The notes: generated from the letters alone by a model not told the origin. A stretch of 64,000 nt of DNA from an uncultured Candidatus Saccharibacteria bacterium (GCA_964410165.1 CAYPFT010000001.1:38341-102340); one strand, 5' to 3'. Counted from the stretch's first letter, positions 337 to 37,787 are shown. Program-made: numbers and translations.

Positions 337-1452
337 ATGGGCGCTATGGACGAGCCGAAAAAGGGAGATATTTCAATAAAAAGCTTCTCTCTGAAGAGAT
401 TTGGCAAGTGGTATGAGAAGCATGAGCGCACCGTTTCTTTTGCGGCGTTTTTCGGCGGGTTTATTTTCGACAATCTTACCTTGTCTCGGATAGATCGTTT
501 TTTTGATATGTTCGTTCTTTTTTTCTGGCTTGTCATTGCCGGAACTTCGATCATTATTCTCAACATCTCTCAAAAAAAGTTTTCCAAGTATACGAGCGTT
601 TTTTTGTTCTTCATTCAAATCGCCTTCGGGGCGCTCTTCAGCGGATTTACGGTCATTTATATGCGAAGCGGTTCTCTTGCGGCAAGTTTCCCGTTCCTTG
701 CGCTTGTTGTCTTTCTTTTTGTCGGCAACGAGTTTTTCCGAAAGCGCTACCTTCGTTTGGCGTTTCAAGTGAGCATTCTTTTCACCGCGCTTTTTTTCCT
801 CATGATTTTTTATATCCCCATTCTTCTCGGACAGATGGGTGCCGGGACATTTCTTTTAAGCGGCGCCGCAAGTCTCGCGATTATTTTTGTCTTTATTTCA
901 TCGGTATACTCCCTTCTTCCGAAGGAGGCGGGAGAAAAGAAAATGACGCTCATCAAAAGTATCGGCGGTATATTTTTAACCGTCAACATATTGTATTTCA
1001 CCAACAGTATCCCGCCGATACCGCTTTCGCTGAAAGACGCGGGTCCGTATCATTCCCTTTCAAAATCACCGGCGGGAGATTATATTCTTGAAGGCGAGCA
1101 CGTCCGCTGGATTGATTTTTTCAAGCCGCGCAAGGAGATTCATATTCTCTCCGGCGAATCGGTATACTTTTACAGCGCGGTATTCGCCCCCGCGAAATTA
1201 AGTACAGGTATCGCTCACGATTGGCAGTATTATGACGTGAACGCCGGAGAATGGCTTCCGCTCGGGAAATTTGCTTTCGGTATCACTGGCGGTCGCGACA
1301 TGGGCTACCGCGGATATTCCGTAAAGACAAACATCCGTCCGGGCCTCTGGCGCGTGGACGTGATAACCGACCGCGGGCAGGTCATCGGACGAACGAAGTT
1401 CATGGTTATTGAAACAGAAACGCCCGTTGCGCTTGAAACGGCGGTGCGGTAA
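337..1452 (+). CDS. Polytopic membrane protein with a C-terminal soluble domain (DUF2914-like), hypothetical
   Basis: 371-aa ORF. The N-terminal 200 aa are strongly hydrophobic (several predicted TM helices). The C-terminal 150 aa are hydrophilic (WIDFFKP...GYRGYSVKT). Confidence 0.55.
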   Translation: MGAMDEPKKGDISIKSFSLKRFGKWYEKHERTVSFAAFFGGFIFDNLTLSRIDRFFDMFVLFFWLVIAGTSIIILNISQKKFSKYTSVFLFFIQIAFGALFSGFTVIYMRSGSLAASFPFLALVVFLFVGNEFFRKRYLRLAFQVSILFTALFFLMIFYIPILLGQMGAGTFLLSGAASLAIIFVFISSVYSLLPKEAGEKKMTLIKSIGGIFLTVNILYFTNSIPPIPLSLKDAGPYHSLSKSPAGDYILEGEHVRWIDFFKPRKEIHILSGESVYFYSAVFAPAKLSTGIAHDWQYYDVNAGEWLPLGKFAFGITGGRDMGYRGYSVKTNIRPGLWRVDVITDRGQVIGRTKFMVIETETPVALETAVR

Positions 1453-1485
1453 CGTTATTTATTCTTTATTCATAATTCTTGCACG

Positions 1486-2506
1486 TATGCGGTATCATTT
1501 TTACACTACATCCGAAAAAGCATGGAAGGGGATGCTCGCCGCTATTTCCGGAGCGCAAAAGAGCATTTATCTTGAGATGTATATCTTCGAAAATAATACC
1601 GCCGGATACGATTTTCTTTCCGAGCTTGAAAAAAAAGCGCGCGAGGGCGTGCGCGTTATTTCGGTGTTTGACGCTTTCGGGAGCTCCGCGCTTTCTTCCG
1701 CCGCCGTCAATCATTTGCGGAGTGCGGGGGCGGAGGTTCTTTTTTTCAGCTTTTGGTTTCGACGCCTGCATCGAAAGGTGCTTATCGTTGACGAAACGGT
1801 CGGCTTTGTGGGCGGCGTGAATATCGGGAAACATTACGCACGATGGAGAGATTTACAGGTGCGGGTCGGCGGGAAAATCGTTCGCACCCTTGTTCGTTCT
1901 TTTGCGCGCATCTATCGCGAATCCGGCGGGAAAAATCCGGCATTTCGCGAATCGCACTATACGCCAATCCTCACCAAAGCCCGCTTGTGGTTTGTGGAAC
2001 GCGGTATCGGAGAAAGGCGGCATACTCTCAGGCGGCAGTACGCCGAACATATTGACGGAGCACAGAGCTCTCTTGTGCTCGTGACGCCATACCTCGTTCC
2101 GCGCCGGTGGCTTGTAGCGCGTTTGCATCAGGCGATTTTGCGCGGTGTTCGCGTGGAGATTATCGTTCCCGAACACACCGACTATCGGTTCGTTGACCGC
2201 ATAAATTATTACTACCTTCGTCTTTTTGCCAAACTTGGGGCGACCTGCTTGCTTTCTCGTGAAATGAATCACGCGAAAGCGATGCTCTCGGACGAGCGCA
2301 TCGGGATGGTCGGATCGCATAATCTTGATGCCCTTTCTTTCCACTGGAACGAAGAAGCGGGGGTGTTTTTTGACAATCCCGGCATGGTACGCAAACTGCG
2401 TCGGATTCTTGATATGTGGGAAAAAGGCGCGGTGCGTTTTGAAACAAAAACGTACCGACCCGATTGGATCGATACGTTACTCGCGGTGCTTCTTCGTCTG
2501 TTCTAG
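1486..2506 (+). CDS. Phospholipase D / cardiolipin synthase family protein (two HKD motifs)
   Basis: Two HxK(x)4D motifs: HRKVLIVDETVGFVGGVNIG and NHAKAMLSDERIGMVGSHNLD. The start was chosen at the ATG at 1486 (MRYHFYTT) rather than 1409 to avoid overlap with the upstream gene; the start is uncertain. Confidence 0.75.
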
Positions 2507-2507
2507 T

Positions 2508-2612
2508 ACCGGATTAACTTAATTTTGGCCCTTAAAATTTCTAAAATTTATTGAAGAACTTCCCAAGTTTAGAAATTTTTCTAGGTCAAAATTAAGTTAA
2601 TCTGGTACTAGG
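2508..2612. repeat. Long imperfect palindrome (24-bp arms, ~55-bp spacer) downstream of the PLD gene
   Basis: Arm agtaccggattaacttaattttggcc against ggtcaaaattaagttaatctggtact. The spacer holds a further short inverted repeat (ctaaaattt / aaatttttctag). Confidence 0.5.
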
Positions 2613-2614
2613 GT

Positions 2615-2643
2615 TGACAAAATATAAAAATTAAATTATCCTC
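2615..2643 (+). promoter_or_regulatory. Sigma70-like promoter for the SDR gene
   Basis: TTGACA, 17 nt, TATCCT (ttgacaaaatataaaaattaaattatcct), about 45 nt before ATG 2686. Confidence 0.4.
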
Positions 2644-2685
2644 CTTATGGGGGTTTTCCTTGTATTGAACTTAGAGAGGTGAAAA

Positions 2686-3489
2686 ATGAGTAAGCGAACA
2701 GTAATTGTGAGCGGCGCAAGCCGCGGAGTTGGTGCTGAGATTGCCAAGCTTTTGGGAATGTCGGACTGGAATGTGGTCATTTTTGGTAAAACCGATATGC
2801 CGCATCGGATACTTCCGGGTACGATACATTCGGTCGCGGCTGAAATAAAAGCCGCCGGCGGGAGCGTTCTTGCCCTTAAAGTGGACGTGCGTTTTGAAGA
2901 CCAAGTAAGAAATGCGGTAGAGGAGGTCGTTAAGACTTTCGGCGGAATAGACGCTCTCATCAACAATGCGAGTGCGCTTCCTTTTGACGGGTCGGAAAAA
3001 CAGCTTCAGTTGGTGTACGATGTCATCGTGAATGGCACGCGTTTTTGTACGGAGGCGTGCCTGCCATACCTGCAAAAATCTGACAGTCCGCATGTCATCA
3101 ACATCGCCCCGCCGCTTCCGATGGCAGAACACTGGATTGAAAAATACGGGACGTACGCGAAAGCGAAACGCACCGTAAGCAAATATACGGATGTACTGGC
3201 AGAGCTCTACCCGAACATATCTTTTTCCGCGGTGTGGTTCATGAAGATGCTTCTGACTTTGGCCACTATTTTCGGCGTTTTTAAGAGTCGGGAAAAAGCA
3301 GAGAAACATACTCGAAACCCGGTAATAGCGGCGGATTCGGTAAAGTTGTTGCTGGACAACGGGCGGAATGACAAAATATTTTGGACGGACGAAGAAGTCC
3401 TTCAAAAATTGGGCGGCGTAACTGATTTTAGCCGCTACTTAAACCCCGGTTCCAAAGAAGAAGATTTGATGGACGATGTGTTTGTCTAA
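2686..3489 (+). CDS. Short-chain dehydrogenase/reductase (SDR) family oxidoreductase
   Basis: N-terminal VIVSGASRGVGAEIAKLL glycine-rich NAD(P)-binding motif, 267 aa. RBS GAGAGGTGA before the ATG. Confidence 0.8.
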   Translation: MSKRTVIVSGASRGVGAEIAKLLGMSDWNVVIFGKTDMPHRILPGTIHSVAAEIKAAGGSVLALKVDVRFEDQVRNAVEEVVKTFGGIDALINNASALPFDGSEKQLQLVYDVIVNGTRFCTEACLPYLQKSDSPHVINIAPPLPMAEHWIEKYGTYAKAKRTVSKYTDVLAELYPNISFSAVWFMKMLLTLATIFGVFKSREKAEKHTRNPVIAADSVKLLLDNGRNDKIFWTDEEVLQKLGGVTDFSRYLNPGSKEEDLMDDVFV

Positions 3490-3498
3490 TGAGTAAGT

Positions 3499-3669
3499 TA
3501 CCTTACGCACGATGGGAAAGATTTGGTCGGTGAGTCCGCCCTTTTGGCGGTCTCTCCGCCAAATCTTCCGCTTCCGACGCTCTATTTTGGCGGTTCCACC
3601 GCCAAGAGGCGGAGAAACCGACCAAAATTCTACGCCGAAACCGTACGGTATCACAATCATGCGTAAGGT
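3499..3669 (+). mobile_element. Family-1 MITE, copy A (~171 bp, TIR ...cttacgcac / gtgcgtaag...)
   Basis: The termini taccttacgcacgatgggaaagatttggtcggtgagtcc and ggagaaaccgaccaaaattctacgccgaaaccgtacggtatcacaatcatgcgtaaggt are shared with the copies at 24838-25063, 33308-33535 and 38280-38405. Confidence 0.7.
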
Positions 3670-3686
3670 GAGTGAGTAAAGTAAAT

Positions 3687-3722
3687 AAGGGCGCGATGTT
3701 TTCCATCGCGCCCTTTGTTTTG
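3687..3722. terminator. Bidirectional rho-independent terminator between the SDR gene and ETF-QO
   Basis: Hairpin aagggcgcgatg-ttttc-catcgcgccctt followed by tgtttt; the other strand also has an A/T run. Confidence 0.55.
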
Positions 3723-3729
3723 CTCCCTT

Positions 3730-5385
3730 TTACATATCCGTATAATTTGGGCCACTGCCGCCTTCCGGCGCAACCCATGTGATATTTGAGAACGGGTCCT
3801 TGATATCGCAGGTTTTGCAATGGACGCAGTTTGCGGCGTTGATTTGAAACCGCTTCGCGCCGTTTTCGTCCGTAATGATTTCATACACTCCGGCGGGACA
3901 GTATCGTACGGCCGGTTCTTGGTAGAGCTGCAAGTTGAGTTCAATCGGAACGCCGGGATGGCGTAAATGCAAATGCACCGGCTGATCCGGTTCATGTACT
4001 ATATTTGCCCGATAGACCGAAGCCATTTTTCCGAAACTTATTTTTCCGTCCGGCTCGGGGTACTCTATCTTCCGAGATAGTTTTGCGAGCTTGAGCCAAG
4101 CATGGTCGGAAACTCGATTTCTAAGCGTGACAGATAATTTTCCTCGAAAAATATTCTGCTCGAGGAAAATCCACATCGCTCCGAGAAAAGTGCCGAACTT
4201 TGCGAGTGCGGGACTCCAGTTCCGAGATTGATGCAGTTCTTCATATACCCAAGAATTGCGGTATCTCTCGTCCATATCGGGCGTTTTTCTTTGCGTTAGT
4301 ATAGTGTCAAATATCGCTTCCGCCGCAAGCATTCCGGTTTTCATCGCGGTGTGGTTTCCTTTGATTTTTGCTCCATTCAAAAATCCGGCATCATCCCCGG
4401 CAAGCACTCCTCCGGGGAAAGACAGTTTCGGTACGGATTGAAATCCGCCCTTTATGATGGCGCGCGCTCCATACGATATACATTCTCCGCCTTCCAAATA
4501 TTCTCTGATTTTCGGATGCTCTTTCCATCGTTGAAACTCCATGTACGGGTCAAGGTATGGATTTTCATAATCAAGCGCCGTGATAAAGCCGAGCGACACC
4601 TTGTTGTCTTCAAAGTGATAAAGAAAGCCGCCTCCTTCGGTGTGATTGTCGAGCGGCCAGCCGAGAGTGTGAAGGACGAATCCGGGTTTGTGTTTTTGCG
4701 AATCAATGCGCCACACTTCTTTTATCCCGATGCCATAGTGCTGCGGGTCTGAATCTTTTTGCAATCCAAACTTTTCTATCAGCTGTTTGCCGAGATGCCC
4801 GCGGCAACCTTCGGAAAAAATGGTGAATTTGGCTCGTATTTCCACACCCGGCTGGTAATCGCTTTTCGGTTTCCCGTCTTTTCCGACTCCCATGTCTCCG
4901 GTAAGTACGCCTATGACTTCGCCCGTTTCACCATACAATATTTCCGCGGCGGCGAATCCTGGGAAAATTTCCACGCCCATCGCTTCGGCTTGTTCGCCAA
5001 GCCATCGGCACAGTTGCCCCAAGCTGATGACATAATTCCCTTCATTCCGCATAGTTTTCGGAATGAGGGAATGCGGAATTTTTACACCCCTCCTCTCACC
5101 GGAAAAAAAATGCAATTCTTCTTCCGTAAACGGCACATGAAGCGGTGCACCCATTTCGCGCCAGTCCGGGAAGAGCTCGTTCAAAGCTCTCGGTTCAAAC
5201 ACGGCGCCGGAAATAATATGCGCTCCAACGTATGCGCCTTTTTCAAGAACGCATACGGCGAGTTCTGTTCCGGTTTCCGCCGCGAGCTGTTTTAAGCGGC
5301 ACGCGGCGGAAAGTCCGGATGGTCCGGCGCCGACAATGACAACATCAAAGTCCATCACTTCGCGTTCCGCATAATTCATATCCAT
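3730..5385 (-). CDS. Electron-transfer-flavoprotein:quinone oxidoreductase / FixC-FixX-like flavoprotein with a C-terminal 4Fe-4S ferredoxin domain
   Basis: 551 aa. N-terminal FAD motif DVVIVGAGPSGLSAA. C-terminal CVHCKTCDIKDP ferredoxin-type cysteine motif. Lies adjacent to etfAB. Confidence 0.8.
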   Translation of the reverse strand: MDMNYAEREVMDFDVVIVGAGPSGLSAACRLKQLAAETGTELAVCVLEKGAYVGAHIISGAVFEPRALNELFPDWREMGAPLHVPFTEEELHFFSGERRGVKIPHSLIPKTMRNEGNYVISLGQLCRWLGEQAEAMGVEIFPGFAAAEILYGETGEVIGVLTGDMGVGKDGKPKSDYQPGVEIRAKFTIFSEGCRGHLGKQLIEKFGLQKDSDPQHYGIGIKEVWRIDSQKHKPGFVLHTLGWPLDNHTEGGGFLYHFEDNKVSLGFITALDYENPYLDPYMEFQRWKEHPKIREYLEGGECISYGARAIIKGGFQSVPKLSFPGGVLAGDDAGFLNGAKIKGNHTAMKTGMLAAEAIFDTILTQRKTPDMDERYRNSWVYEELHQSRNWSPALAKFGTFLGAMWIFLEQNIFRGKLSVTLRNRVSDHAWLKLAKLSRKIEYPEPDGKISFGKMASVYRANIVHEPDQPVHLHLRHPGVPIELNLQLYQEPAVRYCPAGVYEIITDENGAKRFQINAANCVHCKTCDIKDPFSNITWVAPEGGSGPNYTDM

Positions 5386-5388
5386 AAT

Positions 5389-6345
5389 TTACCTCCTCTC
5401 ATCAAGAGCGTTTCGCATGGCGGAGATGACCTCAAAGAGATCCCCGACGAATCCGATATCCGCGATTTCAAATATCGCGGCTTTCGGGTCTTTGTTTACG
5501 GCAATAATCGTACCGGCATCTTTTATGCCTGCACAATGCTGGGGCGCTCCGGAAATCCCGAAAGCGATGTAGATTTGCGGAGCGATGGTTTTCCCCGATT
5601 GTCCGACTTGGCAGTCATTCGGTATGAAGCCCAAATCTACCGCAACGCGCGATGCTCCGACGGCGGCTCCAAGCTTCTCCGCCAATTGGAAGAGAAGCTT
5701 GAAATTTTCTTTACTGCCGACCCCGGCTCCGCCTGAGACGACAATGCGCGCCGATTGAAGTTCCGGTCTTCCGCTCGCTTCGCTTTTTTCGAGCGAGAGG
5801 AAACGAGTGTGATTCGGTATCGTTGAAACGCGCTCAAGCATGAGTATCTTTGCATCGCCGGTTCGCGCGACTTCTTTGAAAGATGCCATTCGAACCGTTC
5901 CGCACACATACGGCGCACAAACTTCGGTTGTTACAATGCAATTTTCCGCATATGCCGGATTTTCAAACACTCTCGAATCCACCACGCGCATGATGTTGCT
6001 CACTTGCGGGACGCCGAGAAGCGCCGCCACTCGCGGCAGAAGATCCTTCCCGAAAGAAGTTCCGGGAGCGAAGATGTGGCTATAGTTAAGCGCAAGAAAT
6101 ACGGAAACGATTTCCGGCGCAAAAATATTTGCCACAGGATGGGCATGGGCATTGTCTCTGATTACAAAAACCGATTCCGCGCATTCAAGCATCGCGGCTT
6201 GTTTTCCGAGAGAGTCTGCGTTTTCAGGAGTGGCAAATACCGCAATGCCGACTGTTTCCGCCGCTTCATGGGCGCAGGCGACCGTTCTTGCCGTACTTCC
6301 GTTAAGCGTTATGCCGTCATGTTCGGCGATTACAAAAGCTTTCAT
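5389..6345 (-). CDS. etfA: Electron transfer flavoprotein alpha subunit
   Basis: 318 aa, MKAFVIAEH..., with FAD-binding C-terminal region (SGAPQHCAGIKD...). Lies between etfB and ETF-QO. Confidence 0.85.
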   Translation of the reverse strand: MKAFVIAEHDGITLNGSTARTVACAHEAAETVGIAVFATPENADSLGKQAAMLECAESVFVIRDNAHAHPVANIFAPEIVSVFLALNYSHIFAPGTSFGKDLLPRVAALLGVPQVSNIMRVVDSRVFENPAYAENCIVTTEVCAPYVCGTVRMASFKEVARTGDAKILMLERVSTIPNHTRFLSLEKSEASGRPELQSARIVVSGGAGVGSKENFKLLFQLAEKLGAAVGASRVAVDLGFIPNDCQVGQSGKTIAPQIYIAFGISGAPQHCAGIKDAGTIIAVNKDPKAAIFEIADIGFVGDLFEVISAMRNALDERR

Positions 6346-7115
6346 AAGAGTACCCCTCGTTCTGTAAGTAATGAAATAAATTCATCAATGCTTTCGGCAC
6401 GAATGCCTTTGGGGCGCACAGGCGGAGAGCTTACTCGAAGAATTTTTGTCATCGGCGACATGTCTACTCCCAAAATTTCTGGAGAAAGCGTTTCAATCGG
6501 TTTCTTTTTCGCTTTCATAATATCGGGAAGTTTTGCCCGGCGCGGTTCATTGAGGCGTAGATCAACCGAGATTACCGCCGGCAAATCTACCGAAAGGGTT
6601 TCAATCCCCCCATCAACCTCCCTTATCGCCGTTGTTCTTTCTCCGTCAATCGTGATTTTTGAAACCGATGTCGCTTGCGGAAAGCCAAGCAGAGCGGCAA
6701 GCATTGCCGGCACTTGTCCGGCATCGTCATCGGTCGCTTGTCTACCCATGAGAACAAGACCAGGAGATTCCTTTTTAATGAGAGACGCGAATATCCGCGC
6801 CGCGCAAAATGGCTCTCGGCATTCGTTCGTTACGACATGAATCGCGCGATCGGCGCCGATGGCAAATGCCGTGCGCAATACATCTTCCGCGACCTTGTCT
6901 CCGATCGTTACGGCGATCACTTCGACAACCATTCCATTTATCAATCCGGACTCTCTCATGCGAATCGCTTCCTCAAGAGCAACCTCATCGAAAGGGTTCA
7001 TCACCATCTTTACTCCGTCGGTTACTACGCCGGATCCGTCCGGGCGTATTTGAATTGTCAATGCGGGGTCAATGACCCGTTTGACGCCAATGAGAATTTT
7101 CATTTTTTCGTTCAT
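6342..7115 (-). CDS. etfB: Electron transfer flavoprotein beta subunit
   Basis: MNEKMKILIGVKRVIDPALTIQIRPDGSG... The start at 7115 was chosen because GTGAGGTGA lies 7 nt upstream. Overlaps the etfA start by 4 nt. Confidence 0.85.
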   Translation of the reverse strand: MNEKMKILIGVKRVIDPALTIQIRPDGSGVVTDGVKMVMNPFDEVALEEAIRMRESGLINGMVVEVIAVTIGDKVAEDVLRTAFAIGADRAIHVVTNECREPFCAARIFASLIKKESPGLVLMGRQATDDDAGQVPAMLAALLGFPQATSVSKITIDGERTTAIREVDGGIETLSVDLPAVISVDLRLNEPRRAKLPDIMKAKKKPIETLSPEILGVDMSPMTKILRVSSPPVRPKGIRAESIDEFISLLTERGVLL

Positions 7116-7304
7116 TTTTTTCACCTCACTTATTTTGTTAATTTCAATGAAACAAGATGTTTCTGTACTTATCAGTAGCAATAAAGTATGAATATGTCAA
7201 TAATTGACTACAATGCGATAAAGTAGTAGCCTCGGGAAAGATATTGACAAAGAGATTAATTGCTTTGCAATTTTTCACAACCAGCAGAAAGAGGTATAGA
7301 GAGA

Positions 7305-8653
7305 TGAACAAAACAAGATTTGACAAACGCATTGTTTTCGCAGGTGCGTGTCGTACCGCCGGTGCCAGCGTTCTTACCGGCATTGGCGGTGGCGGATTTT
7401 GGAGTAACAGCGCGCATGAACTCATGACGACTTGTGTACTTGAAACTCTGCGCCGCACCAATGTTCCGATCGGGGATGTTGACGGCGTTGTAATGGGAAC
7501 TTGCATGCATGACCCGCGCGTGCTCAATGTCGGGCGCATTGTTGCTGTACTTGCGGGACTTCCCGAAGAAATTCGCGAATCGTTTTTCCTCGGCGAGTAC
7601 CTGAGCGTGGAAACCGTATCAAACAGGTCGCTTGCATCGCATGTGGTTGGCGATACGGTGAGTTTCAACTGCGGTTCGGGACTTGTTTCAATCATTAACG
7701 CCGTTCGTCGCCTTCTTTTGGGAGAAGGAAAGGCATACATTGCCGGTGGTGGAGAAAGCATGTCGCATGCTCCGCTTCAAATACCGCGGACGGCAAAAGG
7801 TGAAAAGCCGTACAGCCAGCGGGACTTTGTCGTCAAGAACGGGGAAAATCACGACCTCTTTGTCGCGATGGAAAACGGCGTGACGGTTACGGACGCATTG
7901 CTTCACGGTTTACGCGATCCATTTACCGGATTGCATTACGGAGCGACGGCGGATCTCGCCGCGGTAAAGTATGGCATCACACGTCGGGAACAAGACAAAG
8001 CGGCGGTGATTTCCCACTCTCGCGCGCGGAAAGCTCGCGATGCCGGGTACTTTGCTCCGCAGATTGTTCCCATACGGACTCGCGATGCGGAAGCGCGGAT
8101 AATTGATTTGGACGAAGGAATTCGGACCGACCTTACCGAAGGAGTCCTCGCTTCCCTCAAACCGTACTTCACCACGGACGGCACGGTAACGGCGGCGACG
8201 AGCGCTCTCGTTTCCGACGGTGCGGCGAGCATGCTTGTCATGACGCTTGAAGAAGCGCTTCATAGCGGCATCGCTCCGGACGCTGAAATCCTTGACTATG
8301 AGTTCGTGGCGGGCGACCCATCGTATATGGGCGTTGTCCCCATTCTTGCCATTCAGAAAATTTACGAACGGTGGGGATTTGGCAAAGATACCGAGAATCT
8401 CATGCATATCAATAATGCCGCTTTTGAAGCAACCAACTTGTCCGTCCAAAAGCTCGCAGAAGTTCCGAAGAATCGTTGGAATTGGTGGGGGGATGCTATC
8501 TCCGGCTTCGGTCATGCGGTGGGCGGAAGCGGCGCGATGCGCACGGTAGAGGGAGCGTACATGCTCAAATTCCTTCCGGAATACGACTACGTACTCGTTT
8601 CTTTCTGCGTCGGCGGCGGACAGGCGGTTGCACTGCTTATCGGGCGCGTCTAG
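7305..8653 (+). CDS. Thiolase (acetyl-CoA C-acetyl/acyltransferase)
   Basis: N-terminal nucleophile motif SFNCGSGL. C-terminal GFGHAVGGSGAM and CVGGGQAV thiolase signatures. Start at MNKTRFDKR with AGAAAGAGGTA upstream. Confidence 0.8.
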
Positions 8654-8788
8654 TACAAAAATGCTTTGCAACAGAGCAGGCGAGACCCAAACTCTTGACT
8701 GTCTTTCAACAACAGAGAAAGGTGAAAAAAGATGAAATTAAAACAGAAAGCAGGGATCTTTGTCAATCAACAAATAAAGAGGCACATT

Positions 8789-10015
8789 ATGAACAATCCG
8801 ATAAAAAAGGTCGTCATCATTGGCGGCGGAGCCATGGGCGGCGGTTTCGCGGCTCGCATTGCCCGAGACGCGGGCAATCAAGGAGTAAGAACCGTTATAA
8901 TTGAACACCCGGACCGGGTAGATGCGGCGAGGCAATCGTTTTACGAACGCATCCATCGCTGGTTCAAGCTTGGGCACATTCCATTCGCACGAGTGGAGGA
9001 ACTCGTATCCTACGTCACATTCACCGGAAATCCGGCGGATGCGGCGGATGCAGATTTCTTTCTGGAGTGCGTCCCTGAAAACCTCGAACTCAAACAAGAG
9101 ATTTTCAGAACATACGATGCGATACTGCGTCCCGGCGTCATTATGGCGTCAAATACATCGTCGCGTCTCATCGGGGATATTGCGCAAGCCACCAACCGTC
9201 CGGAGCTTGTCGTCGGATTCCACGGCATGCAGCCGCCGACGAGCAGACCGCTCCTTGAAGTCATTCGTTCATCAATGACCTCCGATGAAACGGTGGAGAC
9301 GGTAACAAACTTCGCGGAAGGTCCGCTCAAGATGGTAACGATTCTCTCGAAAGACAGTCCGCTTGCCATCGTGAATCGCCAGCTCCTTGTCATTTTGGAT
9401 GAAGTCTACCACTGGCTTGAGCATTCCAATGTGAATACACTTGACATAGATGAGGCAAACAAGGACTGGCCGGCAGGATTTGTCACTCTCTCCAATTTCC
9501 TTGGTCTTGATGTAGTCTTGGAAGTCGGGAAAAACGGCAAAGTGGCGTATCCGGATCGTGTCGTCATGGGCGATCTCATTCCCGAGATGGTAAAACACGG
9601 ACTGGTCGGAAAGAAAAACGGCGAGGCGTGCGAGGGCTTCTATGCTCTTGATCCGGAAGAAGGTTCAGCGTTTGAAAATTTACGCAACGAACTCTTTTCG
9701 GATTTTCAAATTGCACGCCGGCATGACATTACCGGAGCGATGGTATATGAATACGCCATGCTCCGCGGGATGAATGAAGCGGCACTCATCCTTGAAGAAG
9801 GGGTGGCGAGTAAGAGTGACATTGAACGCGGGACCGTCGTCGGACTTGGCATCAAAAACGAAGGACTTTTGCATGCCGCGGATGCGTACGGCATTAATCG
9901 TCTGGTCGTTGCCCTCACGAAGCTTGAAAGCAAACACGGCATGCGATTCCATCCTGCGAAAATTCTCGTTGATATGACAAAGAGTGACGGGACATTCTTC
10001 GGGGATGAGTTGTAA
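8789..10015 (+). CDS. 3-hydroxyacyl-CoA dehydrogenase (NAD-binding, with C-terminal dimerisation domains)
   Basis: KKVVIIGGGAMGGGFAARIA Rossmann motif and a 3HCDH-like body. Start at MNNPIKK with AAAGAGG upstream. Confidence 0.8.
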   Translation: MNNPIKKVVIIGGGAMGGGFAARIARDAGNQGVRTVIIEHPDRVDAARQSFYERIHRWFKLGHIPFARVEELVSYVTFTGNPADAADADFFLECVPENLELKQEIFRTYDAILRPGVIMASNTSSRLIGDIAQATNRPELVVGFHGMQPPTSRPLLEVIRSSMTSDETVETVTNFAEGPLKMVTILSKDSPLAIVNRQLLVILDEVYHWLEHSNVNTLDIDEANKDWPAGFVTLSNFLGLDVVLEVGKNGKVAYPDRVVMGDLIPEMVKHGLVGKKNGEACEGFYALDPEEGSAFENLRNELFSDFQIARRHDITGAMVYEYAMLRGMNEAALILEEGVASKSDIERGTVVGLGIKNEGLLHAADAYGINRLVVALTKLESKHGMRFHPAKILVDMTKSDGTFFGDEL

Positions 10016-10037
10016 ACTCGTTCACTGTGCAATAGTT

Positions 10038-10072
10038 ACGGAGAAAGTCAAGATTGACTTTCTCCGTTTTTT
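10038..10072 (+). terminator. Rho-independent terminator after the 3-hydroxyacyl-CoA dehydrogenase gene
   Basis: acggagaaagtcaa-ga-ttgactttctccgt followed by tttttt. Confidence 0.6.
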
Positions 10073-10133
10073 GTATATAAAGGTTTTAGGCCTGTCAATG
10101 ACAGAATTACCACTTTATAGATGAGGTAACAAC

Positions 10134-12362
10134 ATGTACCCTGAAATTAAAACAAAAGTAGTCAAAAACCTTGGCGTTTTGACTTTGGAACCGGAAAATA
10201 ATGCATTGTCCGTTGACTTTCTCAAGGCGCTCGCCGGAGAATACGTCGAAATGGCGAACACTTCGGGTACGGATGCCACCATGCTCATGATGAAACGGAT
10301 GATTGTCGGGATGGATATCAAGGCAATTCTCGCGTTCATGGAATCCCGCGATCGCGAGCATGTTGACGAGTTCCTTTCGTTTGTCCATCGCGACTTAATC
10401 ACGGCATTCGCCGAGTCCGGGAAGCCCGTGATTGCGGCTTTGCAGGGATCGCATATCCTTGGCGGCGGACTTGAGCTCGTTCTGCCATGCCACATCATCG
10501 CCGATAAAGCGACAAGCATCGGGCTGGTGGAAAGCGGAATCGGGCTTTTCCCCGGATATATGGGAATTTTCTCAATGATGAAGAGAATCGGGGTGCGGAA
10601 AACGCTTGAGCATGTCCTTGCCGGAGATTTCATTCCGGCTCACCGCGCCTTTGAAGAGGGGATCATTGATTGCATCGCGGACACGGATTTTTCAAATACT
10701 GTGTTCGCATTTGCCGCCGATGTTTTGGAGGGAAGATTTGTGAAGCAATCGCACATTCTTATCCCCGAAGAAGCGAACTCTCTCTCGGAAGAAGAGATTT
10801 TGCGGCTCGCAAACGGAAAACCGGCGGAACTCGTGCAGGCGATAATTGATGCCGTTCGCGCTATCGCTTCAAGACCTACTTCAGTCGAGGCGTCTCTTGC
10901 GGAACGCGAGCGATTCTTGGATGTTTTCTTTTCTCGCTATGCCGGAGAATTTGTTTTGGCGTTCCTTGAAGGAAAGCGCAAACCAAAGTGGGATAATGTC
11001 ATCGGCGGGAATAAGAATATCGCCGCTTCCGTTGAAGTATTGCCAAGCGTTGTAGCGGAAATTCCGCCGTGGGAAAAAGAAGAGTTTAGCGATGCCCGCA
11101 CAGCGGTACGCGAATTTGTGAAAGAGAGAATTCTCGCGAACGAGAAGGATCTCCAAACAGACACTGCCGCGATTACGGAAATACTTCAGCATATGCATGA
11201 GTGTGGCGCGACCGGCTCGAAATTTCCCGAAGACAAATTGACGGAAATCCAACGCGCCCTACGAAAGGCGATGGAAACGAACGAGCCGTTGGTCAAAAAA
11301 ATCGTTTCTGAAATGTTTGACCTCGGGTTCTTCAGTGTCCAGTTTGCCGAACAGTACGGTGGCATGGGAATGGGCATGGTTGGAGCATGCATGGTGGCGC
11401 AAGAGATTGCCTACGGAGATCCGGCAATCGGCATCATCGTCGGCGCACATGCGTGTCTCTTTTCGGGACCGATTGCCGCTTACGGAACAGAAGACCAAAA
11501 GGAACGGTATCTGGTTCCCGGCATGCGCGGAGAATTCTTGGGCGGGCTTGCATCTACCGAGCCGCATGGGGGTTCAAATCCGGCGGGGAAACAGGCGCTT
11601 GCGCTGAAAGTTTCCGGCGGATGGGAAATAACGGGCAGATACTCGTTTATCTCAAACGGCAGAACGGCGCGGTATCTGCTCGTCTATGCGCAGACAGATA
11701 AGGACGCGCTTGAAGATGAGGCGCTCGCCAAGAGGACCATGGGAGCATTCATCGTGGATACGAAGAGCCCAGGATTTCTCGCCTACCCCGACGAAGACAA
11801 AGGGGGGCTCCTTGCTTCGTGTACCAACGGATTGTCGCTTGACTCAGTGTTCGTTCCCGAAAAAGATGTGCTTTCAATCGGGGTTGGAAATTCGGAAGGA
11901 TACAAGACTATGATGGAAACTTTCAACTGCGGCCGGATTATGCTTGCCGCCGCCAATGTCGGCGGGATACAAGCCGGTATTGATGAAGTGCTGAAATTCG
12001 CGACAACGAGAATGATTGGCGGCGGGCGGAAAATGTATGAGTCCGAATCCATTCTTGAAGAAATCGGAAACATGCGAGAACGGTTGGAAGTGCTGAAGAG
12101 AGCTGTGTATGCGACGGCATGGGAAGCCGACCGCGGCATGGACATACGCGTAAGCGCCGCCGCCGTGAAGACACTCGGTACTGATATGACACAGGATGTG
12201 CTCAAACTGGGTAGACAGCTCATGGGCGGTGCCGGTTTTATGAAGAGCAGAATGTGGAAGATGAACATTGACTTCGCCGTGTGGGACACATTTGAAGGTC
12301 CGAAGAAAAGAATCAACACCTTCATCGGCGTGCAGACGGTAATAGATTATACGCGCAGGTAA
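10134..12362 (+). CDS. Fusion protein: enoyl-CoA hydratase/isomerase (crotonase) N-terminal domain plus acyl-CoA dehydrogenase C-terminal domain
   Basis: 742 aa. N-terminal half has crotonase-fold motifs (ALQGSHILGGGLELVLPCHIIADKATSIGLVESGIGLFPGYMG). C-terminal half is ACAD-like (MVAQEIAYGDP..., GGLASTEPHGGSNPAG, ITGRYSFISNG, QLMGGAGFM). Confidence 0.75.
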   Translation: MYPEIKTKVVKNLGVLTLEPENNALSVDFLKALAGEYVEMANTSGTDATMLMMKRMIVGMDIKAILAFMESRDREHVDEFLSFVHRDLITAFAESGKPVIAALQGSHILGGGLELVLPCHIIADKATSIGLVESGIGLFPGYMGIFSMMKRIGVRKTLEHVLAGDFIPAHRAFEEGIIDCIADTDFSNTVFAFAADVLEGRFVKQSHILIPEEANSLSEEEILRLANGKPAELVQAIIDAVRAIASRPTSVEASLAERERFLDVFFSRYAGEFVLAFLEGKRKPKWDNVIGGNKNIAASVEVLPSVVAEIPPWEKEEFSDARTAVREFVKERILANEKDLQTDTAAITEILQHMHECGATGSKFPEDKLTEIQRALRKAMETNEPLVKKIVSEMFDLGFFSVQFAEQYGGMGMGMVGACMVAQEIAYGDPAIGIIVGAHACLFSGPIAAYGTEDQKERYLVPGMRGEFLGGLASTEPHGGSNPAGKQALALKVSGGWEITGRYSFISNGRTARYLLVYAQTDKDALEDEALAKRTMGAFIVDTKSPGFLAYPDEDKGGLLASCTNGLSLDSVFVPEKDVLSIGVGNSEGYKTMMETFNCGRIMLAAANVGGIQAGIDEVLKFATTRMIGGGRKMYESESILEEIGNMRERLEVLKRAVYATAWEADRGMDIRVSAAAVKTLGTDMTQDVLKLGRQLMGGAGFMKSRMWKMNIDFAVWDTFEGPKKRINTFIGVQTVIDYTRR

Positions 12363-12379
12363 CTCGCAACAACTAAACA

Positions 12380-12447
12380 GCCGTCGATCTTCGGGTCGAC
12401 GGCATTTTATTAAAAAAGCCGCCTCCGAATTGATCGGAAGCGGCTTG
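12380..12447. terminator. Back-to-back convergent terminators (plus-strand hairpin 12380-12410, minus-strand hairpin 12411-12447)
   Basis: ccgtcgatcttcgggtcgacgg + attttatt serves the plus strand. agccgcctccgaattgatcggaagcggct preceded by aaaaaa on the plus strand (T-run on the minus strand) serves the ligase gene. Confidence 0.55.
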
Positions 12448-12457
12448 CCTGCTTGTT

Positions 12458-14326
12458 TTACTCCGCTTCTGCGAGTACTGCGGTGCGCTCTTCCATGGCT
12501 TCCATGCGCAGCAGGTAGCGCAGAGTACTTTCTTTCCGTGATTTCGGAATTTCTGTTTTGAACCGTATCTCTTTGGGTATGTTATACGGCGCCATGTGGG
12601 CGGCTACCCAGTCCTTGAGTTCTTCTTTCAGCGCTTCGGTTTGGGTGTATCCGTCTTTCAACACCACAAACGCCCACACTTCCGGCTCAGAACTTTCATG
12701 AACATCTTTGGGCGGAATTCCGACGACCGATACCTCGGCGACGGCTTTGTGCAGTTTGAGCTTGGCTTCAATGTCGTCCGGGTATTTTTTGTTTTTGCCG
12801 ACGATGACATCATCTTTTCTTCCCGTACAATAATGATTGCCGTCTTCATCCTCGTAGCCGAGGTCCGCCGTTTGAATCTTGCCGTCTTTGGTGAGGACTT
12901 TTGCCGTCGCTTCGGGGTTGTTCCAATAGCCGTCCATGACTGACGGAGTTCTAACCCACATCCATCCGATTTCTCCTTGAGCCGTTTCCCTAAAGTGTCC
13001 ACCCTCTTCTTTCATGTATCGTATACTTATGCCGGGAAGAGGCGAACCAATGGATCCGGGCTTGTTTCTTCCCGGCTTGTTGCAAGTAACCACCGGGCCG
13101 CCTTCCGTGAAGCCGTATCCTCCAAAAAGAACCGCTCTCCCGACCCACGCATTGAATCGCTCTTCAATTGCGGGTGCAAGCGCGGATCCTCCGGAGATGC
13201 AATACTTCAGATTCTCCAAGCCCTCTTGGCACCTTTCTGTTTCTGACAGCGCCTCATATTGCGCCGGAACGCCGACGAACACGGTCGCTTTTGATTTCAC
13301 CAAACCGTTTCGTATGGCGGCAATATCTCGCGGATCTATTTCTATGACGATATGGCTTCCGGAAATGAGCGGAGCATTGATCGCTACAGTATCCGGAAAA
13401 GCGTGGTCAGGCGGCAGAGAGAGGAAAAATGTTTCCACGCCGCGTTTGATGCTGAAATGCTCAAGACACCGGTTGGCATTGTCCGCAATCTTTTTATGCG
13501 AGAACATGACGCCTTTTTGCCCCCCGCTCGTTCCGCCGGTAGACATGATGTGTCCGAGAGAGGAAGGAAGCGGACGGCGTTCGTCGAGTGCATCTATTTC
13601 TTCTTGTGATACATATCCATGTATAATCTTCCCGAACGAGTGGAAATTTCCGGCATCTTCGCGCAAGGCCTTTCGCGCTTTTTCAAAGAGCGTTACTTTG
13701 CGTTCAAGCCGGGCTATTTTTTTTTCCGCTTTGGCAAGAGACAGGCCGATAACGTCCGCATAGGCTTTTTCTTCTTCGGCTATTTCCAGATCCCGCCCGA
13801 ACTTCAAAGCGCTTACGGCGCAAAAAAGCGAAGAAACGGAGGTATGCAGAAATTCGGGCGCTGTGCCGGAAAAACACCATTCTGTGCCCGAAAGCATTTC
13901 GGGGATGTTCGCGACAATGGGAACAGAGCGCAAAGGGTTGCTCCACTTGAGAGGTTGTTCCGAAAACGCTTCCTTAACCGTCGGATAGAACAGGTCAAGC
14001 GTCGCGATATTCGCTGCGCCGTACTCAAGTATTTTCTCGGCGAGCTCAAGTTTCGGGGCTTCGGGAGAATATGGTGCCGGAACCGCGCCGGCATAAAAGT
14101 ATCCGAGATAGGCGATAATCCATTCTCTGCAGGGCGGCGCGACGATCATTACTCTGTCGCCGGGGCGTATGCCGAGGCGGATCAGATAAACCGCAAAGCG
14201 TTTGGCATACAATTGCATGTGTTCGTAGTCGGTCGTTTTTCCCATGAAAGTAACGCAAGGGGCTTTTGGTTTTCGTGCCACAGCATCGTCAAATCCGTCC
14301 AAAATCGTTTCATAATTAAAGTTCAT
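12458..14326 (-). CDS. AMP-dependent acyl-CoA synthetase/ligase with a coiled-coil insertion in the N-terminal domain
   Basis: AMP-binding motif MSTGGTSGGQKGVMFSH. C-terminal ligase body (GYGFTEGG..., DLGYEDEDGNHYCTGRKDD). Start at MNFNYE with GGAGG 6 nt upstream. Confidence 0.75.
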   Translation of the reverse strand: MNFNYETILDGFDDAVARKPKAPCVTFMGKTTDYEHMQLYAKRFAVYLIRLGIRPGDRVMIVAPPCREWIIAYLGYFYAGAVPAPYSPEAPKLELAEKILEYGAANIATLDLFYPTVKEAFSEQPLKWSNPLRSVPIVANIPEMLSGTEWCFSGTAPEFLHTSVSSLFCAVSALKFGRDLEIAEEEKAYADVIGLSLAKAEKKIARLERKVTLFEKARKALREDAGNFHSFGKIIHGYVSQEEIDALDERRPLPSSLGHIMSTGGTSGGQKGVMFSHKKIADNANRCLEHFSIKRGVETFFLSLPPDHAFPDTVAINAPLISGSHIVIEIDPRDIAAIRNGLVKSKATVFVGVPAQYEALSETERCQEGLENLKYCISGGSALAPAIEERFNAWVGRAVLFGGYGFTEGGPVVTCNKPGRNKPGSIGSPLPGISIRYMKEEGGHFRETAQGEIGWMWVRTPSVMDGYWNNPEATAKVLTKDGKIQTADLGYEDEDGNHYCTGRKDDVIVGKNKKYPDDIEAKLKLHKAVAEVSVVGIPPKDVHESSEPEVWAFVVLKDGYTQTEALKEELKDWVAAHMAPYNIPKEIRFKTEIPKSRKESTLRYLLRMEAMEERTAVLAEAE

Positions 14327-14544
14327 AACAAACCTCCGTATGTGTCTGTCAAGGTGAAAAATATGCAATGATTATTGCATGAACCTGCTCTATCTTTACT
14401 ACAAAATCTACTTTTTTGCAAGTTGTTTCGGGGCGCCTTGACTCCATTCGTTCTTTATGGAAGTATTGAAGATGGCAGAGCTTTTTTTACGCTCAAGATG
14501 CTTTATTGACATTTTTACAACTTTTTGACCAAAGGAGGCCAAAA

Positions 14545-16455
<1,911 letters not shown>

Positions 16456-17334: not shown

Positions 17335-18036
17335 TCAATCTTGACGCCGTATCGGCGCGTGGCGGACAATATCCGTTATCTTCTCCACGTCGTCTGATAT
17401 GACGTAGAGCTTGCGGTCGTCTTTGTTGATCGCCTTGTGTTTTTTGTAGAGCTGTTGTTCTATGAATTTATCAAGCGCATTCCAATAATCGCTCCCCATG
17501 AGGATTATGGGAACTTGTTCAATCTTTCCCGTCTGGACGAGCGTGAGAATCTCGAAAAATTCATCAAGGGTTCCGAAGCCGCCGGGGAAGAAGATATACG
17601 CTTCGGCCGCGTAGGCAAGGAGAACTTTTCGCACGAAGAAGTAGTCGAATGTCATGCTTTCCGTCAGATAAGGATTTTCACTCTGTTCATGATTGAGCTT
17701 GATGTTGAGTCCGAGAGAAAACCCTTTTGCTTCATGCGCGCCGCGGTTGCCGGCTTCCATGATGCCCGGACCGCCGCCGGTAACGACGCCGATGCCGTAT
17801 TTTGAAAGCCCCGCCGCAAGCTTCCGCGCCGTTTTGTAATGCGCGTCCTTTTCCGTAAACCGCGCCGAGCCGAAGAACGTAACGGTTTTTTCAAGTCCTT
17901 GAATAAAATTAAAACCGTCTTTGAATTCGTTCGCGATACGCTCCACGCGCTCATTCACGATTTTTCCAAACTCTTTTTTTGAGAGCGTGGGAGGAATGGA
18001 AGGGGAAGTTTTTTGCGGAATTATTTTTTTTGCCAT
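17335..18036 (-). CDS. LOG family protein (TIGR00730, lysine-decarboxylase-like / cytokinin riboside 5'-monophosphate phosphoribohydrolase fold)
   Basis: VTGGGPGIMEAGNRGA and PGGFGTLDEFFE motifs. Confidence 0.8.
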   Translation of the reverse strand: MAKKIIPQKTSPSIPPTLSKKEFGKIVNERVERIANEFKDGFNFIQGLEKTVTFFGSARFTEKDAHYKTARKLAAGLSKYGIGVVTGGGPGIMEAGNRGAHEAKGFSLGLNIKLNHEQSENPYLTESMTFDYFFVRKVLLAYAAEAYIFFPGGFGTLDEFFEILTLVQTGKIEQVPIILMGSDYWNALDKFIEQQLYKKHKAINKDDRKLYVISDDVEKITDIVRHAPIRRQD

Positions 18037-24837: not shown

Positions 24838-25063
24838 CTCACCTTACGCACGACTGGAAAGATTTGGTCGGTGAGTCCACCACAAGAGTACTTCCATTTT
24901 CTAATCGCTTCGCTCAAGAAAATTAGGTCGCTCCTCTTGGAGGTCTCACCGCCAAATCTTTGACTTTCAGCGTTCGATTTTGGCGGTTTCACCTCCAAGA
25001 GGAGGAGAAACCGACCAAAATTTATGCCGAAGCCGTATGTTGTCGCAACTGTGCGTAAGTCCT
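24838..25063 (+). mobile_element. Family-1 MITE, copy B (~226 bp)
   Basis: tcaccttacgcacgactggaaagatttggtcggtgagtcc ... ggagaaaccgaccaaaatttatgccgaagccgtatgttgtcgcaactgtgcgtaagtcct. Lies between infC and a hypothetical gene. Confidence 0.7.
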
Positions 25064-33307: not shown

Positions 33308-33535
33308 TAGGACTTACGCACTGTTGCGACAGCGTACGGTTTCGGCGAGGAATTTTGGTCGGTTTCTCCGCCTCTTGGCGGTGGAACCGCCAAAATTCAG
33401 CGCTGAAATCGAAGATTTGGCGGAGAGACCGCCAAAAGGGCGCGACCTGATTTTCTTGAGCGAAGCGATTAGAAAATGGAAGTACCCGTGTGGCAGACTC
33501 ACCGACCAAATCTTTCCCCAGTGCGTAAGTCCTAT
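33308..33535 (-). mobile_element. Family-1 MITE, copy C (~228 bp, inverted relative to copies A and B), ending 9 nt before the tatD start
   Basis: taggacttacgcactgttgcgacagcgtacggtttcggcgaggaattttggtcggtttctcc ... gactcaccgaccaaatctttccccagtgcgtaagtcctat. Confidence 0.7.
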
Positions 33536-36000: not shown

Positions 36001-36300
36001 ACATGATAGAGTGCGAACGGCGTCCGGCAAGGATGCCGTTTTTTGTACAAAAATTTGACTTCATTCGTCCTTTTTGTTAGGATACTCCGTACGGCTCGAC
36101 TTAGTGAGCTTTTGTTAAATACGTATAATTCCACCACAACAGTATTTTAGCCACTCGCACGAGACGGGGATTTTCGATGAATTGCACTTTTGTTTTACGA
36201 GGAGTTCGCGGGGTTGTATAGCAATACTACCCCGCAACCCCGCAGAAAAACAAAATTGCAAGGCGCGAAAATAACGGCTCGGGCAGTCTCTGTAAAATAT

Positions 36301-36651
36301 ATGACCAGATCCCTGAAGAAAGGTCCCTACGTGGACGAAAAACTGATGAAAAAGATCGAAGGGAAGAAACCGACGGATGTTGGCGTTATTAAGACGTGGC
36401 GCCGCGCTTCTCAGATTGCGCCGGAAATGGTCGGTTTTACCTTCGGCGTTCATAATGGACGCCAGCACATTGAAGTGCTTGCAACGGAAGACATGGTCGG
36501 GCATCGTTTGGGCGAGTTTTCTCCGACAAGAAAGTTTTTACGGCACGGCGGTAAAATGCAGAAAGAACTCGAACAGAAGAAAAAAGAAGCGGAAATATCG
36601 GCGGCAAAAGCGGCAAAAGCTTCAGGAGATTCGGCATCTAAAAAGAAATAA
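36301..36651 (+). CDS. rpsS: 30S ribosomal protein S19 with a lysine-rich C-terminal extension
   Basis: [20 protein letters not shown]...GHRLGEF. The extra C-terminus [29 protein letters not shown] is unusual. Confidence 0.9.
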
Positions 36652-36660
36652 TCTGCTATC

Positions 36661-37047
36661 ATGGAACAAGGAATCGCCAAGCTCGCAAATTATCGACAGT
36701 CACCCAGAAAGGTGAGGCTTTTAGCCGATATGGTTCGGGGGAAAGAAGTGGGAGAAGCCCTTACGGCGCTTCGCTTTACGCCGAAAAGAGCATCGCTTCC
36801 CATCATGAAGCTCATTAAAAGCGCCTTATCCAACGCACAGAACGCGGGAGCCGGTGCGAAAGACATTTTTCATATCACCGCCATAGCCGTTGACAAGGGC
36901 GTGGTACTCGCAAGACACATGCCGCGTGCCCGAGGAAGAGCATTTCCCATAAAAAAACGTTCCAGTAATGTAACCATTGTAATAGAAAAAGGCGAAGCGA
37001 AACAGAAGAAATCCAAAAACACAAAGGCAATAAAAACAAAATCGTAA
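36661..37047 (+). CDS. rplV: 50S ribosomal protein L22
   Basis: Typical L22 core with a K-rich C-terminal tail. Confidence 0.9.
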   Translation: MEQGIAKLANYRQSPRKVRLLADMVRGKEVGEALTALRFTPKRASLPIMKLIKSALSNAQNAGAGAKDIFHITAIAVDKGVVLARHMPRARGRAFPIKKRSSNVTIVIEKGEAKQKKSKNTKAIKTKS

Positions 37048-37065
37048 CCGTCTTTCGTCCCCGGT

Positions 37066-37777: not shown

Positions 37778-37787
37778 ATTAACCGCC

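Follow-up and report, generated by a model that had tools for sequence, protein, structure and literature searches.

A probable fatty-acid beta-oxidation module with an electron transfer flavoprotein:quinone oxidoreductase and a hydratase-dehydrogenase fusion protein on a Parcubacteria chromosome

A 64,000-nt stretch of DNA from an uncultured bacterium (GCA_964410165.1, CAYPFT010000001.1:38341-102340; referred to as the window, with positions counted from its first letter) carries at 3730-14326 seven genes that probably form a complete, self-contained, oxidative fatty-acid beta-oxidation module on a Parcubacteria chromosome, feeding quinone through an electron transfer flavoprotein (ETF) and an ETF:quinone oxidoreductase (ETF-QO). 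Its chemistry is ordinary, but the module stands out for its host, a bacterium of the candidate phyla radiation (CPR), for the rare family of enoyl-CoA hydratase::acyl-CoA dehydrogenase (ECH::ACAD) fusion proteins represented in it, and for the first clear ETF-QO tied to beta-oxidation in the CPR. CPR bacteria, or Patescibacteria, make up a large share of bacterial diversity and are described as fermentative episymbionts without respiration, quinones, or fatty-acid synthesis and degradation. The gene products were checked against Pfam profiles with curated cut-offs, NCBIfam models, and the sequences of solved PDB chains. A sequence-only reading of the window had placed etfB, etfA, and an ETF oxidoreductase on the minus strand, diverging from a thiolase, a 3-hydroxyacyl-CoA dehydrogenase (HADH), and a crotonase-ACAD fusion on the plus strand, with a convergent acyl-CoA ligase closing the module. 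The divergent arrangement was borne out at essentially the same coordinates, and the ligase was confirmed by the listing of open reading frames (ORFs) and by Pfam. All seven genes exceed curated family thresholds, and each matches the Pfam family claimed for it well above the cut-off rather than an unrelated family. Profiles, solved-structure sequences, and catalytic residues together support the earlier proposal that the module carries out both acyl-CoA activation and beta-oxidation by itself, served by a dedicated ETF and ETF oxidoreductase.

The ETF oxidoreductase (551 aa, 3730..5385, minus strand), for which the sequence-only reading had left a choice between a quinone-linked enzyme and a FixCX-like fusion, is unambiguously a canonical ETF-QO as judged from its sequence, and it is predicted to reduce quinone. 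It consists of an N-terminal FAD Rossmann fold (GxGxxG Rossmann matches at residues 14-61), a ubiquinone-binding domain (PF21162, 148.2 bits, cut-off 27.7), and a C-terminal 4Fe-4S domain (PF05187, 148.2 bits, cut-off 24). Comparison with ETF-QO and with FixC plus FixX, the check that had been suggested, came out for ETF-QO: pig ETF-QO (2gmh_A) is matched at 655 bits (E = 5e-196), with residues 7-551 collinear with 30-584, versus 100 bits for FixC (7koe_C) and 28 bits for FixX (7koe_D) of the FixABCX complex 7koe. The NCBIfam FixC model gave 80.8 bits, its cut-off being 610. The C-terminal 4Fe-4S motif reported earlier, CVHCKTCDIKDP, was found in the translation. Four cluster-ligating cysteines are present (C-x24-C-x2-C-x2-C), and RYCPAGVYE and NCVHCKTCDIKDP match 2gmh at the Cys positions.

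EtfB (257 aa, 6342..7115, minus strand; Pfam ETF, 141 bits) and EtfA (318 aa, 5389..6345, minus strand; Pfam ETF and ETF_alpha) are assigned by similarity to the Group-1, non-bifurcating “housekeeping” type. The best solved relatives of EtfA are Paracoccus 1efp_A (228 bits) and human 1efv_A (224 bits), compared with 145 bits for the bifurcating 4kpu_A, and EtfB scores 226-236 bits against human and Paracoccus ETF (human 1efv_B, 236 bits), compared with 85 bits for the bifurcating 4kpu_B. Across the bifurcating ETFs of Acidaminococcus, C. difficile, Thermotoga, and Acetobacterium, scores of the two subunits ranged from 79 to 145 bits; against FixABCX, EtfA scored 130 bits (7koe_B) and EtfB 81 bits (7koe_A). 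EtfB has the dehydrogenase-recognition loop LNEPRRAKLPDIMKAKKKP with its anchor Leu, and EtfA is without an N-terminal ferredoxin domain or any other extra domain. A Group-1 ETF together with a canonical ETF-QO implies the classical, non-bifurcating route from ETF through ETF-QO to quinone. By established bioenergetics, reduction of enoyl-CoA requires a low-potential or bifurcating donor, and a quinone acceptor makes the ACAD step effectively one-way, in the oxidative direction. On the profile and solved-structure scores of the 551-aa protein and of EtfAB, a FixCX fusion and bifurcation were rejected. A Bcd/EtfAB butyrate-forming system was also rejected, the ETF not being of the bifurcating type, ETF-QO being present, and the ACAD domain being not specifically closer to Bcd than to medium-chain acyl-CoA dehydrogenase (MCAD).

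The dehydrogenase and hydratase steps are assigned to a single ORF (742 aa, 10134..12362, plus strand; Pfam ECH_1 and Acyl-CoA_dh_N/M/1), in which residues 1-~290 form a crotonase domain, ~293-310 a linker, and ~311-742 a complete ACAD. The N-terminal domain belongs to the crotonase family (PF00378, 58 bits, cut-off 27), and hydratase activity is predicted from its motifs. These are GGGLE(114)L and LVE(133)SGIGLFPG, in which E114, E133, and G110/G112 are invariant in an alignment of the fusion family; we take E114 and E133 to be the counterparts of E144 and E164 of rat ECH. The first oxyanion motif is degenerate, reading VGMD instead of AGAD. In the ACAD domain, PF02771, PF02770, and PF00441 all exceed their cut-offs, and the catalytic Glu is E721 in an FEGP motif, nearly invariant in the family alignment (A2), as is E725. 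Its top solved relatives include the butyryl-CoA dehydrogenases 1buc, 9w60, and 5ol2_C at ~139-141 bits, with MCAD at 134 bits, and over PDB and NCBIfam scores the short- and medium-chain enzymes lie within ~8 bits of one another. An AlphaFold model of the fusion, made with the family alignment as input, folds the two domains well (mean pLDDT 77.5), with a disordered linker at 293-310 and a segment of low confidence at ~335-375. Against butyryl-, isovaleryl-, and medium-chain ACADs, the ACAD domain of the model gave template-modelling (TM) scores of 0.86-0.90, normalised to target length. Among PDB chains, none spans the two domains together, the best TM-score on the query being 0.47.

The segment at ~335-375 is an insertion of ~40 aa in the N-terminal helical domain of the ACAD, present in the window protein only and absent in all ten relatives described below. 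In the MCAD:ETF complex, ETF docks on MCAD at this N-terminal helical domain. A link between the insertion and the adjoining ETF, which no other family member has, is speculative.

For the rest of the cycle, the 3-ketoacyl-CoA thiolase (449 aa, 7304..8653, plus strand; Pfam Thiolase_N/C) scores 260.6 bits against the acetyl-CoA C-acyltransferase model TIGR01930 (cut-off 240.55) and keeps its catalytic residues, namely the Cys of NCGSG, the His of GH, and the Cys of FCVGGG. The HADH (408 aa, 8789..10015, plus strand; Pfam 3HCDH_N + 3HCDH in two stretches) has an NAD domain and a duplicated C-terminal domain, aligns to FadJ positions 303-706, and shows the motif GGGAMGGG and the His/Glu pair. 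The AMP-forming, FadD-like acyl-CoA ligase (622 aa, 12458..14326, minus strand and convergent; Pfam AMP-binding, 200 bits, and AMP-binding_C) has the P-loop STGGTSGGQKG, the motif GYGFTE, and a coiled-coil-like insertion of ~100 aa. Its top NCBIfam models are long-chain-fatty-acid--CoA ligases, every one scoring under its cut-off.

In the proposed pathway, the FadD-like ligase would activate free fatty acids, probably from host or environmental lipids, CPR presumably being unable to make their own. Within the fusion, the ACAD domain would convert acyl-CoA to enoyl-CoA (step 1), and the crotonase domain of the same polypeptide would hydrate the enoyl-CoA (step 2), which would presumably be channelled from the dehydrogenase to the hydratase site. 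The FadB/J-like HADH and the thiolase would then finish the cycle. The ACAD flavin would be re-oxidised by EtfAB, with ETF presumably docking to the ACAD domain, and electrons would pass from ETF to ETF-QO, a monotopic membrane protein, and on to a membrane quinone, with a putative quinone pool and quinol oxidase downstream. The direction of flux is one that we infer, as is the chain length of the substrate.

The three minus-strand genes are closely packed, the etfB stop and the etfA start sharing 4 bp. Between the two arms of the module lies an AT-rich divergent intergenic (promoter) region of 188 bp (7116..7303), and within it, at 7248-7267, the 20-bp palindrome CAAAGAGATTAATTGCTTTG, a candidate operator. 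A GC-rich hairpin with a perfect 12-bp stem (3687..3715), 15 nt 3' of the ETF-QO stop, probably serves the etfB-etfA-ETFQO operon as a (bidirectional) terminator. On the plus strand, a hairpin with a 13-bp stem followed by a T-run (10038..10067) stands between the HADH and fusion genes and is terminator- or attenuator-like, and two convergent terminator hairpins (12380-12403, plus strand; 12416-12446, minus strand) separate the fusion and ligase genes. Third-party gene calls on the two independent Logan assemblies of SRR4343428 and SRR4343430 gave the same ORFs. Directly left of the module, at 1409-3489, are a two-HKD phospholipase D (PLD)/cardiolipin-synthase-like gene and a short-chain dehydrogenase/reductase (SDR; PRK08278-like, 216 bits), a pairing suggestive of a lipid context. 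Near the module, at 17335-18036, a gene of the LOG family (lysine-decarboxylase-like) is 49% identical to a gene (3208-3936) adjoining the cassette in one relative contig (L167).

The host is a member of the CPR/Patescibacteria, specifically the Parcubacteria, by protein identity, because its elongation factor G (EF-G, 41234-43381) is 94% identical to that of a “Parcubacteria group bacterium”. The next EF-G matches are at 76-87%, the named ones being mostly Paceibacterota, Campbellbacteria, Yonathbacteria, Lloydbacteria, and Pacebacteria. The remark in the sequence-only reading that the genome is small therefore holds for a Parcubacteria/CPR host. The GC content here is 47-52%.

The fusion family is rare. 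When 5.8 billion proteins were searched by word index, the only matches were the fusion itself and unfused ACADs at <=31% identity; HMMER, run exhaustively over 1.84 billion cluster representatives, yielded ~11 true ECH::ACAD clusters. The window fusion aligns end to end with ten of these proteins (P0173-P0178, P0180, P0181, P0183, and P0190) at 27-35% identity. The only taxon-labelled members, MBI4120267.1 and KKU05270.1, are both from Parcubacteria. Scans of GTDB genomes and JGI metagenomes found only ordinary ACADs and unfused ECH and ACAD operons and no more fusion loci, and no ECH::ACAD fusion was described in the literature searched. Six candidates (P0182, P0184, P0185, P0188, P0207, and P0285) proved to be ACAD-ACAD tandems and were dropped from the family. 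These proteins are ~740-800 aa long with two complete ACAD domains, and one is from an Ardenticatenia metagenome-assembled genome (MDQ7031080.1).

Synteny was compared over six contigs from five distinct relatives (L083-L086 and L167-L169, with L085 and L086 sharing one protein). In the window and the six relative contigs alike, HADH immediately precedes the fusion; thiolase stands upstream at five of these seven loci. The window protein fits the ECH::ACAD family both by its single-ORF architecture and by synteny. In L085 (7432-9885) and L086 (1851-4304), of the KKU05270.1 lineage, the gene directly upstream of ECH::ACAD encodes a thiolase::HADH fusion of 817 aa, which puts the entire beta-oxidation cycle on two polypeptides. 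A patatin-like lipase gene stands just upstream of the cassette in the same two contigs, an alpha/beta hydrolase and a PlsC-type acyltransferase are its neighbours in L084, and a ligase occurs among the neighbours in relative contigs. In keeping with what CPR contigs should look like, the flanks in these relatives contain genes for ribosomal proteins, NusG, and SecE along with numerous short ORFs that lack annotation. The cassette genes of the window are ~28-38% identical to their Parcubacteria counterparts. The simplest history is that thiolase-HADH-(ECH::ACAD) is an old, patchily distributed Parcubacteria cassette.

The ETF operon points elsewhere. The 120 best matches of the ETF-QO are at 61-68% identity, and the named ones are Gammaproteobacteria (Methylocaldum, Cycloclasticus, Alcanivorax, and Arenicella); public data hold no close homologue (best 68% identity). 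The etfB-etfA-ETFQO order is identical in the two best-match loci examined (L170 and L171), with identities of 54-57% for EtfB, 56-59% for EtfA, and 66-68% for ETF-QO. The GC content of those operons is 0.57-0.61 and that of the window operon 0.50. Because it is collinear with and 54-68% identical to gammaproteobacterial operons, the operon most likely came as one block from a gammaproteobacterium and was later ameliorated in composition. A comparable origin, from Gammaproteobacteria, has been reported for CPR quinol oxidases (PMC9166423).

The continuity of the locus was assessed with Logan contigs, which are 100% identical to and collinear with the window over 3629-15315 (SRR4343428) and 3629-12841 (SRR4343430). 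The junction between the ETF operon and the cassette is spanned by both assemblies and the ligase-FtsH junction by the SRR4343428 contig only. More Logan contigs are collinear with 1-2535 and 2573-3543, and 1.1 kb was gained leftward. A dispersed intergenic repeat of ~150 nt is present in three copies at 84% column identity (3530-3665, plus strand; 24920-25060, plus strand; 33310-33450, minus strand). It is a long imperfect hairpin of TTTGGCGG-N5-CCGCCAAA units (6 motif matches, 0.03 expected), and copy 2 has apparently compensatory changes, GGCGG to GGAGG with CCGCC to CCTCC. No Rfam family matched the repeat. It looks like a repetitive extragenic palindromic (REP) or miniature inverted-repeat transposable element (MITE) rather than a cis-regulatory element, because its orientation to neighbouring genes is inconsistent. 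The occurrence of the 3.5-kb copy also at 24.9 and 33.4 kb ties the left border of the module to the same genome. The GC content at third codon positions (GC3) of the module, 0.48-0.58, is within the host range.

Several observations weigh against a quinone-linked beta-oxidation module in this host. The 64-kb window showed no genes for quinone biosynthesis, a quinol oxidase, or any other respiratory complex, and CPR bacteria are generally reported to be without quinones. In the six relative contigs, no ETF or ETF-QO gene lies within ~10 kb of the cassette. Public data hold no second example of the module, and at >37% identity the fusion matches only itself. Tetranucleotide correlation with the core is 0.78-0.87 for the module, compared with 0.91-0.97 for other core segments, and Logan contigs leave two junctions to the left of the module (2536-2572 and 3544-3628) unbridged. 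Both of these gaps fall on palindromes, and the repeat and palindrome structure explains the assembly breaks. The tetranucleotide deviation, which is smaller than that of a putative mobile element at 52-62 kb (correlation 0.62-0.75), is read as that of an old acquired island, with a small residual chance of mis-assembly. The last points raise the question of an assembly or binning artefact, in which the module or its ETF half would derive from a co-occurring proteobacterium and would have been wrongly joined to a Parcubacteria contig. Such an error would agree with the gammaproteobacterial nearest relatives of ETF-QO, EtfA, and EtfB, with the tetranucleotide signature, with the two Logan breaks, and with the module being known from one organism and study only. 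We consider it very improbable, since protein identity to any proteobacterial gene is just 54-68%, the GC content of 0.50 and the GC3 of 0.48-0.53 are host-like and unlike the donor-type operons, etfB lies 188 bp from the thiolase of a cassette with a Parcubacteria-associated fusion, that junction is recovered at 100% identity in two Logan assemblies, and the breaks coincide with palindromic repeats, one of them repeated on the same contig.

If the locus is accepted as genuine, its function could be read in two other ways. One is reverse beta-oxidation or butyrate-type fermentation, in which acetyl-CoA would be condensed to butyryl- or longer acyl-CoA and the ACAD would act as an enoyl-CoA reductase, with a bifurcating ETF or a FixABCX-like complex as the driving force. 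In favour of this, each of the four core reactions can chemically run in either direction, butyryl-CoA dehydrogenases are among the top solved relatives of the ACAD, and CPR are classically fermentative (PMC5220378). However, MCAD scores nearly as well as those enzymes (134 vs 141 bits), the EtfAB pair is of Group 1 (224-236 bits to the human and Paracoccus proteins vs 79-145 bits to bifurcating ones), the oxidoreductase has the ubiquinone-binding domain of ETF-QO and is not FixC/FixX, and an AMP-forming ligase serves uptake and activation, not release of a fermentation product, all of which makes fermentation by this route a very unlikely function. The “butyrate-type” label of the sequence-only reading thus has nothing specific in its favour, given an ACAD equidistant from short- and medium-chain enzymes, a HADH of the FadB/FadJ type, and a FadD-like ligase; the reductive direction, which it had also allowed, is unlikely because the ETF is non-bifurcating and the acceptor quinone-linked. 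The other is lipid tailoring, in which the cassette would shorten or remodel scavenged host fatty acids for membranes and the ETF and ETF-QO would be a mere redox vent. The patatin-like lipase (L085 and L086), the alpha/beta hydrolase, and the PlsC-type acyltransferase (L084) adjoining the cassette, the PLD/cardiolipin-synthase-like gene and SDR just upstream in the window, the missing ETF and ETF-QO near the cassette in relatives, and the lack of fatty-acid synthesis in CPR (PMC9166423) would all suit this role. Tailoring is nevertheless compatible with energy conservation, as the full cycle including thiolase gives acetyl-CoA and NADH, and the acquisition of a dedicated ETF and ETF-QO operon right next to the cassette suggests that efficient disposal of electrons into a quinone pool was selected for; as the principal function, tailoring seems unlikely. 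The oxidative, quinone-linked module thus remains the probable reading. A further and tentative proposal concerns the path beyond ETF-QO, which may run as a minimal, laterally assembled borrowed-quinone chain from acyl-CoA through ETF and ETF-QO to a quinone acquired along with host membrane lipids rather than synthesised by the cell, and on to a proteobacterium-derived cytochrome bo3 or bd oxidase.

Elsewhere, the window encodes methionyl-tRNA synthetase, IF-3, RecG, RecO, FtsH, a type IV secretion system (T4SS)-pilin-like protein, and a tmRNA. A ribosomal cluster at 36190-43381 (S19-L22-S3-L16-(L29)-S17-L14-L24-L5) begins with S19, L2 and the genes preceding it being absent and a histidine phosphatase gene standing upstream in their place; the cluster is interrupted by an XRE-type helix-turn-helix gene (40349-40621) and is followed by EF-G, an unusual S10/spc/str rearrangement. 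ARAGORN called a 94-nt tRNA-Lys(CTT) at 43210-43303 (plus strand), wholly within the EF-G ORF and probably a false positive. The segment at ~52000-62500 is of low GC content (0.40-0.44), compositionally foreign, and abuts the tmRNA gene. It holds genes for a DNA methyltransferase (52131-53489), a CHC2 primase zinc finger (57927-58478), and a large serine recombinase (60509-62200), as well as 783-aa and 561-aa ORFs without assignment, and the segment resembles a mobile element or prophage that has integrated at the tmRNA site. A LOOT RNA (RF03000; 56173-56288, plus strand) scores 72.7 bits (gathering score 46.4) within this putative element, the literature searched offering nothing informative on it, and the tmRNA gene (about 62096-62491, minus strand) encodes an unusually long tag peptide, AKLSSKVKSVVSPYFAFHPGFALA.

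A beta-oxidation module running on a canonical ETF-QO implies a quinone pool and a quinol-oxidising partner in a CPR cell and bears on how CPR handle host lipids, on quinone borrowing, and on the purpose of the orphan quinol oxidases of Paceibacteria. Some Paceibacteria have proteobacterium-derived bo3 or bd quinol oxidases whose electron source was unclear (PMC9166423; PMC5220378). A borrowed-quinone chain, if true, would supply the missing quinone reductase for those oxidases, which had seemed mere O2 scavengers, and some CPR would then respire on host lipids. Separately, the ECH::ACAD fusion, together with thiolase::HADH in relatives, would be a new two-polypeptide beta-oxidation machine. 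The ECH::ACAD family is rare and uncharacterised and has probably been overlooked by module-based annotation pipelines.

The closest known system is the mitochondrial and proteobacterial ETF - ETF-QO pair (1EFV, 2GMH, and Paracoccus 1EFP), which has the same three proteins with full-length domain architecture, and gammaproteobacterial ETF operons have the same etfB-etfA-etfQO gene order as the window. Unlike in that system, the host here belongs to the CPR, without known quinone biosynthesis or a complete respiratory chain, and the sole dehydrogenase client encoded nearby is the fused ECH::ACAD. FixABCX and Bcd-EtfAB (7KOE, 5OL2, and 4KPU) show distant flavoprotein-fold homology, FixC corresponding to the FAD domain of ETF-QO and FixX to its ferredoxin domain; FixC is without the ubiquinone-binding domain, and the 551-aa protein scores 6-fold lower to FixC than to ETF-QO. 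The Fad systems of E. coli and Pseudomonas (FadD, FadE, and FadBA) have the same chemistry and activities, with the HADH here resembling the C-terminal half of FadB/FadJ and the ligase resembling FadD, but they fuse the hydratase with HADH (FadB/FadJ), whereas here the hydratase is fused to the ACAD. Within the CPR, “Candidatus Parcunitrobacter nitroensis” offers the nearest precedent, a Parcubacteria host with co-localised beta-oxidation genes and an ETF, as here, which its authors judged exceptional for the CPR (PMC5220378). It is the one respiratory Parcubacterium described and the sole exception encountered in a literature that portrays CPR as lacking respiration and lipid metabolism. ETF:QO was not identified in that organism, and an FeS oxidoreductase was proposed instead (Castelle et al. 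2017, PMC5220378). Its ACAD and hydratase were described as separate genes at ~38% GC, whereas in the window they are fused, the GC content is 47-52%, and an ETF-QO is present.

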